From: Candidatus Scalindua sp.
GTDB taxonomy: Bacteria; Planctomycetota; Brocadiia; Brocadiales; Scalinduaceae
NCBI GenBank assembly: GCA_031316235.1
Contig: JALDRA010000001.1
Span: 3,870,001-3,902,000 of the forward strand
Length of the DNA stretch: 32,000 nt
Direction of reading: 5' to 3'
Both the position numbers and the translations under genes were made by a program. Each line of letters begins with the position of its first letter. Within the stretch, counting starts at the first letter, position 1. This document shows positions 17,260-17,468 of this stretch, one piece after another. Under the pieces are notes generated by a model that was given only the letters and a program-made list of their open reading frames with translations, was not told the origin of the DNA and did no database searches.

Positions 17260-17295
17260 AATTCAATTCCTAAAAATAGTGGTTTTCTCCTTCCT

Positions 17296-17429
17296 CTATC
17301 CAAATCTTCCCGTAAGGTAATCCTGAGTAGAACTTTTAGCCGGATTAGTAAATATGGTACTGGTTTTGTCGTACTCAATAAATTCCCACTGAAATCTTCT
17401 GCCTTTATCTTGTTTTTTCTCTGATCCAT
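17296..17429 (-). pseudogene. pstB: pstB remnant: about the first 14 codons joined out of frame to about the last 30 codons
   Basis: From the ATG at 17429 the reading is MDQRKNKIKAEDFS, comparable to the E. coli PstB N-terminus ..SKIQVRNLNFYYG. In another frame, ending at the TAG at 17296-17298, it reads [30 protein letters not shown], comparable to the E. coli PstB C-terminus [30 protein letters not shown]. Walker A, the signature motif and Walker B are all absent. Only 209 nt separate pstA from phoU. Confidence 0.8.
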
Positions 17430-17468
17430 CGGAAGAACTTTCCTTGTAAATAAATATCAAAAAACTAT

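Follow-up and report, generated by a model that had tools for sequence, protein, structure and literature searches.

ABC importers need a nucleotide-binding subunit, which in the PstSCAB phosphate transporter is the ATPase PstB. In E. coli, loss of any of the transporter genes or of phoU abolishes the signal that phosphate (Pi) is replete and leads to over-expression of the Pho regulon, and PhoU physically contacts both PstB and PhoR (PMC5775613). Laboratory ΔpstB or pst null mutants of E. coli (e.g., BW26388, PMC5775613) have lost the ATPase subunit and have kept the other pst genes and phoU. The locus described here is likewise reduced, with the difference that its deletion arose naturally and spontaneously, in an uncultured planctomycete of the anammox group, a member of Candidatus Scalindua that is known here from sequence. 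A literature search on the pst genes of Scalindua or of anammox bacteria returned nothing relevant, with no mention of pstB loss.

To place the locus among its relatives, we compared the PstA protein encoded in the window, i.e., the whole 32-kb stretch of Scalindua DNA that was analysed, with a genome set in which each GTDB species is represented once. The matches identified the lineage as Candidatus Scalindua, within the Brocadiales. The best match was PstA of Candidatus Scalindua sp. SCAELEC01/AMX11 (hereafter L006), with 87% identity, and the next matches were marine Scalindua (72%) and then Jettenia (70%). The genes of L006 are arranged as in the window, and an intact pstB lies between pstA and phoU, the product of which (P0001) is about 254-255 aa long and begins MMDQEKVKIRAEDFSFYYNG…. 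At the same position, the window holds a 134-nt remnant that is 82% identical in DNA to L006 pstB over its whole length and that is homologous to the first 14 and the last 29 codons of this gene. The upstream spacer and the downstream ribosome-binding region of phoU are also the same in the two loci. In contrast to the intact gene, the window lacks 631 nt that encode the ATPase motifs, and the two ends of its remnant are in different frames.

Gene order and intactness of the phosphate cluster

The cluster is encoded entirely on the minus strand, in the order porin, porin, pstS, pstC, pstA, pstB scar and phoU. The two porin genes are phosphate-selective porin O/P genes, one at 24362-25837 (PF07396, E=2.4e-51) and one at the head of the cluster at 22443-23828 (PF07396, E=2.9e-29). 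They are followed by pstS (21325-22305, 326 aa; TIGR02136, 243 bits against a cut-off of 206.6), a long form of pstC (19108-21318, 736 aa), a long form of pstA (17469-19067, 532 aa; TIGR00974, 258.6 bits against a cut-off of 193) and, beyond the scar, phoU (16558-17259, 233 aa; TIGR02135, 225 bits against a cut-off of 130). PstC scored 196.1 bits against TIGR02138, just under the cut-off of 196.45, and its orthologues in L006 and in a second relative, L085, are likewise 736 aa long. The NCBIfam cut-offs were therefore passed by three of the four co-oriented pst and phoU genes and narrowly missed by pstC. All six genes, the two porin genes included, equal their orthologues in length and are intact, as the preliminary description had read pstS, pstC, pstA, phoU and a porin gene. 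From the stop codon of pstA to the start codon of phoU there are exactly 209 nt (17260-17468, minus strand), where the only trace of pstB is the 134-nt scar; the pstSCAB-phoU operon encodes no functional ATPase subunit here.

The long forms of the two permease proteins have an architecture of their own. PstC carries a WD40/beta-propeller-like insert at about residues 215-390, as judged from weak Pfam matches, and PstA has an N-terminal extension of ~250 aa that gives coiled-coil-like matches. The same long-form PstC/PstA architecture was also observed in other taxa, which include Nitrospirales, Acidobacteriota, Thermoanaerobaculia and Nevskiales. Immediately upstream of the phosphate genes lies a complete modABC molybdate transporter operon (25938-28573), the ModC protein of which has a TOBE domain, and beside it, within 25938-29052, a small HTH_1 (LysR-type) ORF.

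The pstB remnant and the 631-nt deletion

The remnant consists of two pieces on the minus strand. The N-terminal piece (17388-17429) comprises the pstB start codon at 17429-17427 and 13 further codons (MDQRKNKIKAEDFS), and it aligns with the start of intact pstB genes of Scalindua, over their first 14-16 codons, in both our pairwise (A1) and our multiple (A2) alignment. Its 14 residues are too few to be scored alone against a profile; at the DNA level, blastn aligns it in one block with pstA and the spacer between them (89.4% identity over 489 nt to the relative L084). The C-terminal piece (17296-17387) comprises 2 nt of a Gly codon, 29 codons and the stop codon. Read from 17387, this other frame gives (W) plus 29 residues, ends at 17296 and matches positions 220-248 of the 248 positions of TIGR00972, the equivalog model for PstB (E=1.8e-5). 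Together, the 42 and 92 nt make up the 134 nt, which are 78-87% identical in DNA to the intact orthologues. These results bear out the preliminary description, which had proposed a 134-nt pstB remnant in a 209-nt gap, with a PstB-like N-terminus and, in a different frame, a PstB-like C-terminus; the support for the N-terminus comes from the DNA alignment to intact pstB.

The remnant falls far short of membership in the PstB family: its best ORF (17296-17460) scored 24.2 bits against the curated TIGR00972 cut-off of 343.2 bits, and its ORFs gave no match to PF00005, the ABC nucleotide-binding domain being absent. Descent from pstB is indicated by the orthologous position between pstA and phoU and by the homology at both ends. 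On these sequence criteria, the remnant is a pstB pseudogene by descent and not a functional member of the family. A 65-aa ORF (17232-17429, minus strand) had been interpreted as a chimeric read-through of the scar, and this is what we found: it begins at the pstB ATG with MDQRKNKIKAEDFS, crosses the scar, from where it is no longer in the pstB frame, and terminates 28 nt past the start of phoU. Its product had no Pfam or NCBIfam match, and the called ORF is better annotated as a pstB pseudogene feature.

Alignment to four intact orthologues showed that the window differs from them by a single clean internal deletion of 631 nt, seen as a 631-column gap that is the only gap in this stretch in comparison with the four relatives (A1 and A2). 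The alignments and blastn place the junction, which reads …GATTTCAGT|GGGAATTT…, at 17388|17387, within the interval of 17384-17396 that had been proposed earlier; in A2, the junction reads …GAAGATTTCAGT|GGGAATTTATTGAG…. The missing stretch extends from just after the codon for Ser14 to the first base of a Gly codon in the conserved LGELIEY motif. Because 631 is 3×210+1, the deletion puts the C-terminal piece into another frame (+1 shift), in agreement with the frame-shifting internal deletion of the preliminary description. When the 134 nt that remain are added to the 631 nt that are missing, the sum of 765 nt corresponds to 254 codons plus a stop codon, which is the length of the relative P0122. 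Moreover, blastn of the relatives' loci against the window returned two collinear blocks every time, the first always ending at window base 17388 and the second resuming at 17376-17387. The loss of every ATPase motif had also been claimed, and all of them do fall within the 631 deleted columns of A2: Walker A (GPSGCGKS), the Q-loop, the LSGGQQQR signature, Walker B (ILMDEP) and the H-loop (THNMQQA), as placed by the sequences of P0001 and of three further close PstB clusters (P0002-P0004) and by A2.

No microhomology was present at the endpoints in the relatives (CAGT|TTTT … CTYG|GRGA), and a repeat search found no repeat flanking the junction in the window. Thus, the event looks like simple illegitimate recombination. 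Slipped mispairing between the T-rich runs near both endpoints in the relatives was considered and rejected, the runs not being retained at the junction. It is very probable, in our estimate, that a single lineage-specific 631-nt deletion after the split from the nearest sequenced relatives left a non-functional pstB scar. Illegitimate recombination without microhomology would have removed roughly codons 15 to 225 of pstB with all ATPase motifs, shifted the frame and left the pseudogene between an intact pstA and an intact phoU.

The outcome resembles that of ordinary pseudogenes formed by internal frame-shifting deletion, in which both termini remain recognisable, the neighbours are intact and there is little decay. 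What makes the present case noteworthy is only that the gene is normally obligatory in its operon and that the host is an anammox bacterium. The lineage-specific pstB pseudogene is genuine, ordinary in kind and of modest physiological interest.

Relatives, assemblies and the age of the deletion

The deletion was absent from each of the related lineages examined. A protein search with the PstB of L006 gave the three further close clusters, P0002-P0004, at 87-88% identity among the best 120 matches. The order pstA, intact pstB, phoU was present in L083 (run SRR28338160), L084 (run SRR23332760), and L085 and L086 (GCA_024227915 and GCA_024449855, respectively), with PstB proteins of 255-256 aa. 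In two further loci that were found through PhoU, L167 and L168, the interior of pstB is intact; the frames, which extend to the end of the contig after no fewer than 174 and 108 codons, respectively, contain the signature, Walker B and H-loop motifs. The flanks of the relatives with intact pstB are 81-89% identical to the window at the nucleotide level (blastn). Scans of genome and metagenome contigs with PstA and a protein search with PhoU found nothing closer than 87-90% amino-acid identity, and an intact pstB allele of the window lineage was absent among the PstB matches listed, where the close clusters P0002-P0004 represent other lineages. The preliminary description would have taken it as a sign of an assembly artefact if related genomes carried pstB at full length in this place. 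We did observe such genes, and they occurred only in lineages other than that of the window; thus, the relatives provide a date for the deletion rather than a refutation.

The rarity of the loss was assessed in 166 fetched loci, most of them around relatives of long-form PstA, of which 137 had at least 1.1 kb downstream of pstA. A full pstB came next in 134 of these 137 assessable loci with long-type pstA. The three exceptions were L001 and L002, which carry the same scar as the window, and the acidobacterial locus L069. The exact 65-aa scar product was called in two Logan runs only, both of them scar-bearing (exact-product look-up), and the 24-nt junction had no exact match in JGI metagenome contigs.

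Several differences among these loci were observed in passing. In L069 (Acidobacteria bacterium Mor1, CP011806.1, 6455-14092), no pstB is present within 6 kb after the long-form pstA, which may reflect a different gene arrangement or another pstB loss. Runs of adjacent accession hold two Scalindua populations that are ~85% identical in nucleotide sequence at the locus, with intact pstB in L083 and the scar in L001/L002. The marine Scalindua MAGs L003 and L004 are fairly close to the window in pstS, pstC and pstA (dN 0.15-0.23); their phoU is very divergent from that of the window (dN ~0.6), and their PstB is 65% identical to that of SCAELEC01, which hints at a different origin of the pstB-phoU module in marine Scalindua. 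The number of copies of a 6-nt Lys-Ile repeat (AAGATA) at the N-terminus of pstB also varies among Scalindua, giving KIKIK or KIK. The short KIK form is common to the window (17400-17415; A2 columns 130-150) and P0122 (…NKIKAEDFS).

Three explanations had been offered for the scar: a recent deletion, the supply of the ATPase in trans, and collapse of the assembly. With respect to the last, the same scar was found in separate assemblies of the runs SRR28338162 (L001, 4208 nt) and SRR28338161 (L002, 3288 nt), which are 99.98% and 100% identical to the window, respectively, and extend for more than 1 kb on either side of the junction. Both contigs contain the PhoU and PstA of the window and the exact 65-aa scar ORF. 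Across the junction, the window and the two Logan run assemblies are identical base for base; these runs are possibly the source data of the window, so that they count as independent assemblies and not as independent samples of the organism. Collapse of 631 nt in an assembly requires a repeat. Since the junction is identical in separate run assemblies and no repeat flanks it, collapse of the assembly is unlikely. A broader form of this explanation would make the scar an assembly artefact or a minority structural variant of a population in which the dominant genome has an intact pstB. Metagenome assemblies can indeed choose minor haplotypes, and the sister run SRR28338160 contains a Scalindua population with intact pstB (L083). 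However, the flanks of L083 are only ~85% identical to the window and thus mark a different population rather than the intact allele, and the three close PstB proteins among the matches listed also trace to other lineages (81-89% nucleotide identity). In addition, the three assemblies agree, each side of the junction being covered by 1 kb or more of unique sequence, and neither the relatives nor the window have a direct repeat at the endpoints that could collapse 631 nt. We therefore regard an artefact or minor variant as very unlikely.

To estimate the age of the deletion, we aligned the porin gene at 22443-23828, pstS, pstC, pstA and phoU by codon in three loci (the window, L006 and L085) and took L003 as the outgroup. 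Pairwise dN/dS among the window, L006 and L085 was 0.06-0.14, and pairs that included the window were similar to the others. The window had 51 lineage-specific non-synonymous and 206 synonymous changes (ratio 0.25), as compared to 75 and 237 in L006 (ratio 0.32) and 81 and 282 in L085 (ratio 0.29), where the non-synonymous counts are lineage-specific replacements at otherwise invariant residues. The phoU gene of the window had no such replacement at all. As the ratio of the window is not above those of L006 and L085, the remaining genes show no relaxed selection. The remnant itself is 87% identical to L084, level with the flanking coding DNA (88-89%), and wherever it was compared with a relative, third codon positions accounted for a disproportionate share of the differences. 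Only four true window-specific substitutions were found in it, of which three are synonymous third-position changes and one replaces Leu by Phe. Three more apparent differences in the N-terminal piece were discarded as an artefact of the Lys-Ile repeat indel.

The lack of relaxed selection in the operon and the barely decayed remnant favour a recent deletion among the explanations that had been offered. The deletion is apparently recent relative to the ~11% divergence from the nearest relative, as far as a low-power test with few sites can indicate. Alternatively, the deletion could be old, with PstS, PstC, PstA and PhoU kept for a role that is independent of PstB, e.g., in phosphate sensing or regulation. 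Such retention would agree with a signature of purifying selection in the remaining genes that is at least as strong on the window branch as in the relatives. Against it, the remnant is no more diverged from L084 than its flanks and its changes are mainly at third positions, neither of which would be expected after long neutral decay; a single lineage, and the runs of a single study, yielded the scar; and in the E. coli model PhoU reads the state of the transporter through PstB (PMC5775613). An old deletion is thus highly improbable.

The other explanation on offer was that the deletion is real and the transporter nevertheless works, with a second pstB elsewhere in the ~4.15-Mb genome supplying the ATPase in trans. 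The source could be another pst operon or an orphan copy, and the loss would then have been driven by redundancy and be phenotypically mild. Full-length pstS, pstC, pstA and phoU, which have not gathered non-synonymous changes in excess on the window branch, are consistent with this explanation, and two pst systems or adjacent pstB genes occur in many bacteria (PMC4913102, PMC12096839). However, there is no second pstB in the 32-kb window. PhoU of the window is recorded on a contig of 4,149,782 bp, presumably the near-complete source genome, and no protein from a contig of this length was among the best 120 matches to either a close or a marine Scalindua PstB; this argues weakly against a second copy, as these matches reach only paralogues above ~67% identity. 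Use of PstB across operons is not known in this group. The only other ABC ATPase in the window is ModC (TIGR02142, 432.7 bits), which was rejected as a hidden PstB in view of its clear TIGR02142 assignment and its TOBE domain. That pstS, pstC, pstA and phoU are intact would fit function with a trans-encoded ATPase equally well as it would fit recent loss. On balance, we consider supply in trans rather unlikely. It is also quite improbable that, in a free-living anammox bacterium, PstSCA and PhoU are under purifying selection without a cognate PstB, working either with a non-cognate ATPase or as a sensor or regulator, together with PhoU, that is free of ATP hydrolysis.

Consequences for phosphate uptake and signalling

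Without its cognate motor, PstS-PstC-PstA would import no phosphate, except where a further PstB gene outside the operon provided one. By analogy with E. coli, the loss probably disturbs phosphate signalling through PhoU and PstB, and the expectation shared with the pst null mutants of that species would be the loss of both high-affinity Pi uptake and the Pi-replete signal. These consequences for Pho signalling are extrapolated from Enterobacteria; neither PhoR nor PhoB was seen within the 32-kb window.

The coding strand contains no terminator-like site between pstA and phoU, so that phoU is probably still co-transcribed. Ribosomes on the 65-aa chimeric ORF would overrun the ribosome-binding site and the start codon of phoU, and one might speculate that read-through of this ORF changes phoU translation. 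Polar or translational effects on phoU may differ from those in the E. coli laboratory mutants because the scar ORF overlaps the phoU start.

Loss of pstB challenges no concept; it matters for the phosphate physiology and the annotation of this anammox lineage. Should the deletion be fixed and uncompensated, it would define a Scalindua population without high-affinity phosphate uptake and with a possibly constitutive starvation response. It would then bear on niche, e.g., phosphate-replete reactors or sediments, and would affect metabolic reconstructions that otherwise score the Pst system as present.

The region downstream of phoU also differs among relatives. An 84-aa ORF (16314-16568, minus strand), which overlaps the end of phoU by 11 nt, has a HAD-like 'FDIDGT' motif and no Pfam match; gene calling picked it up on both Logan contigs, and it may encode a small protein or be a further gene fragment. 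The segment 13884-16558 next to phoU contains, in addition, a Big_1-like secreted-protein ORF (15637-16320) and a response regulator ORF with a receiver domain only (14254-14880), and it separates phoU from a dihaem-cytochrome/AhpC-thioredoxin fusion gene (12851-13882). Since this fusion gene directly follows phoU in L085 and L086, the arrangement reflects either a local insertion in the window or a deletion in those relatives.
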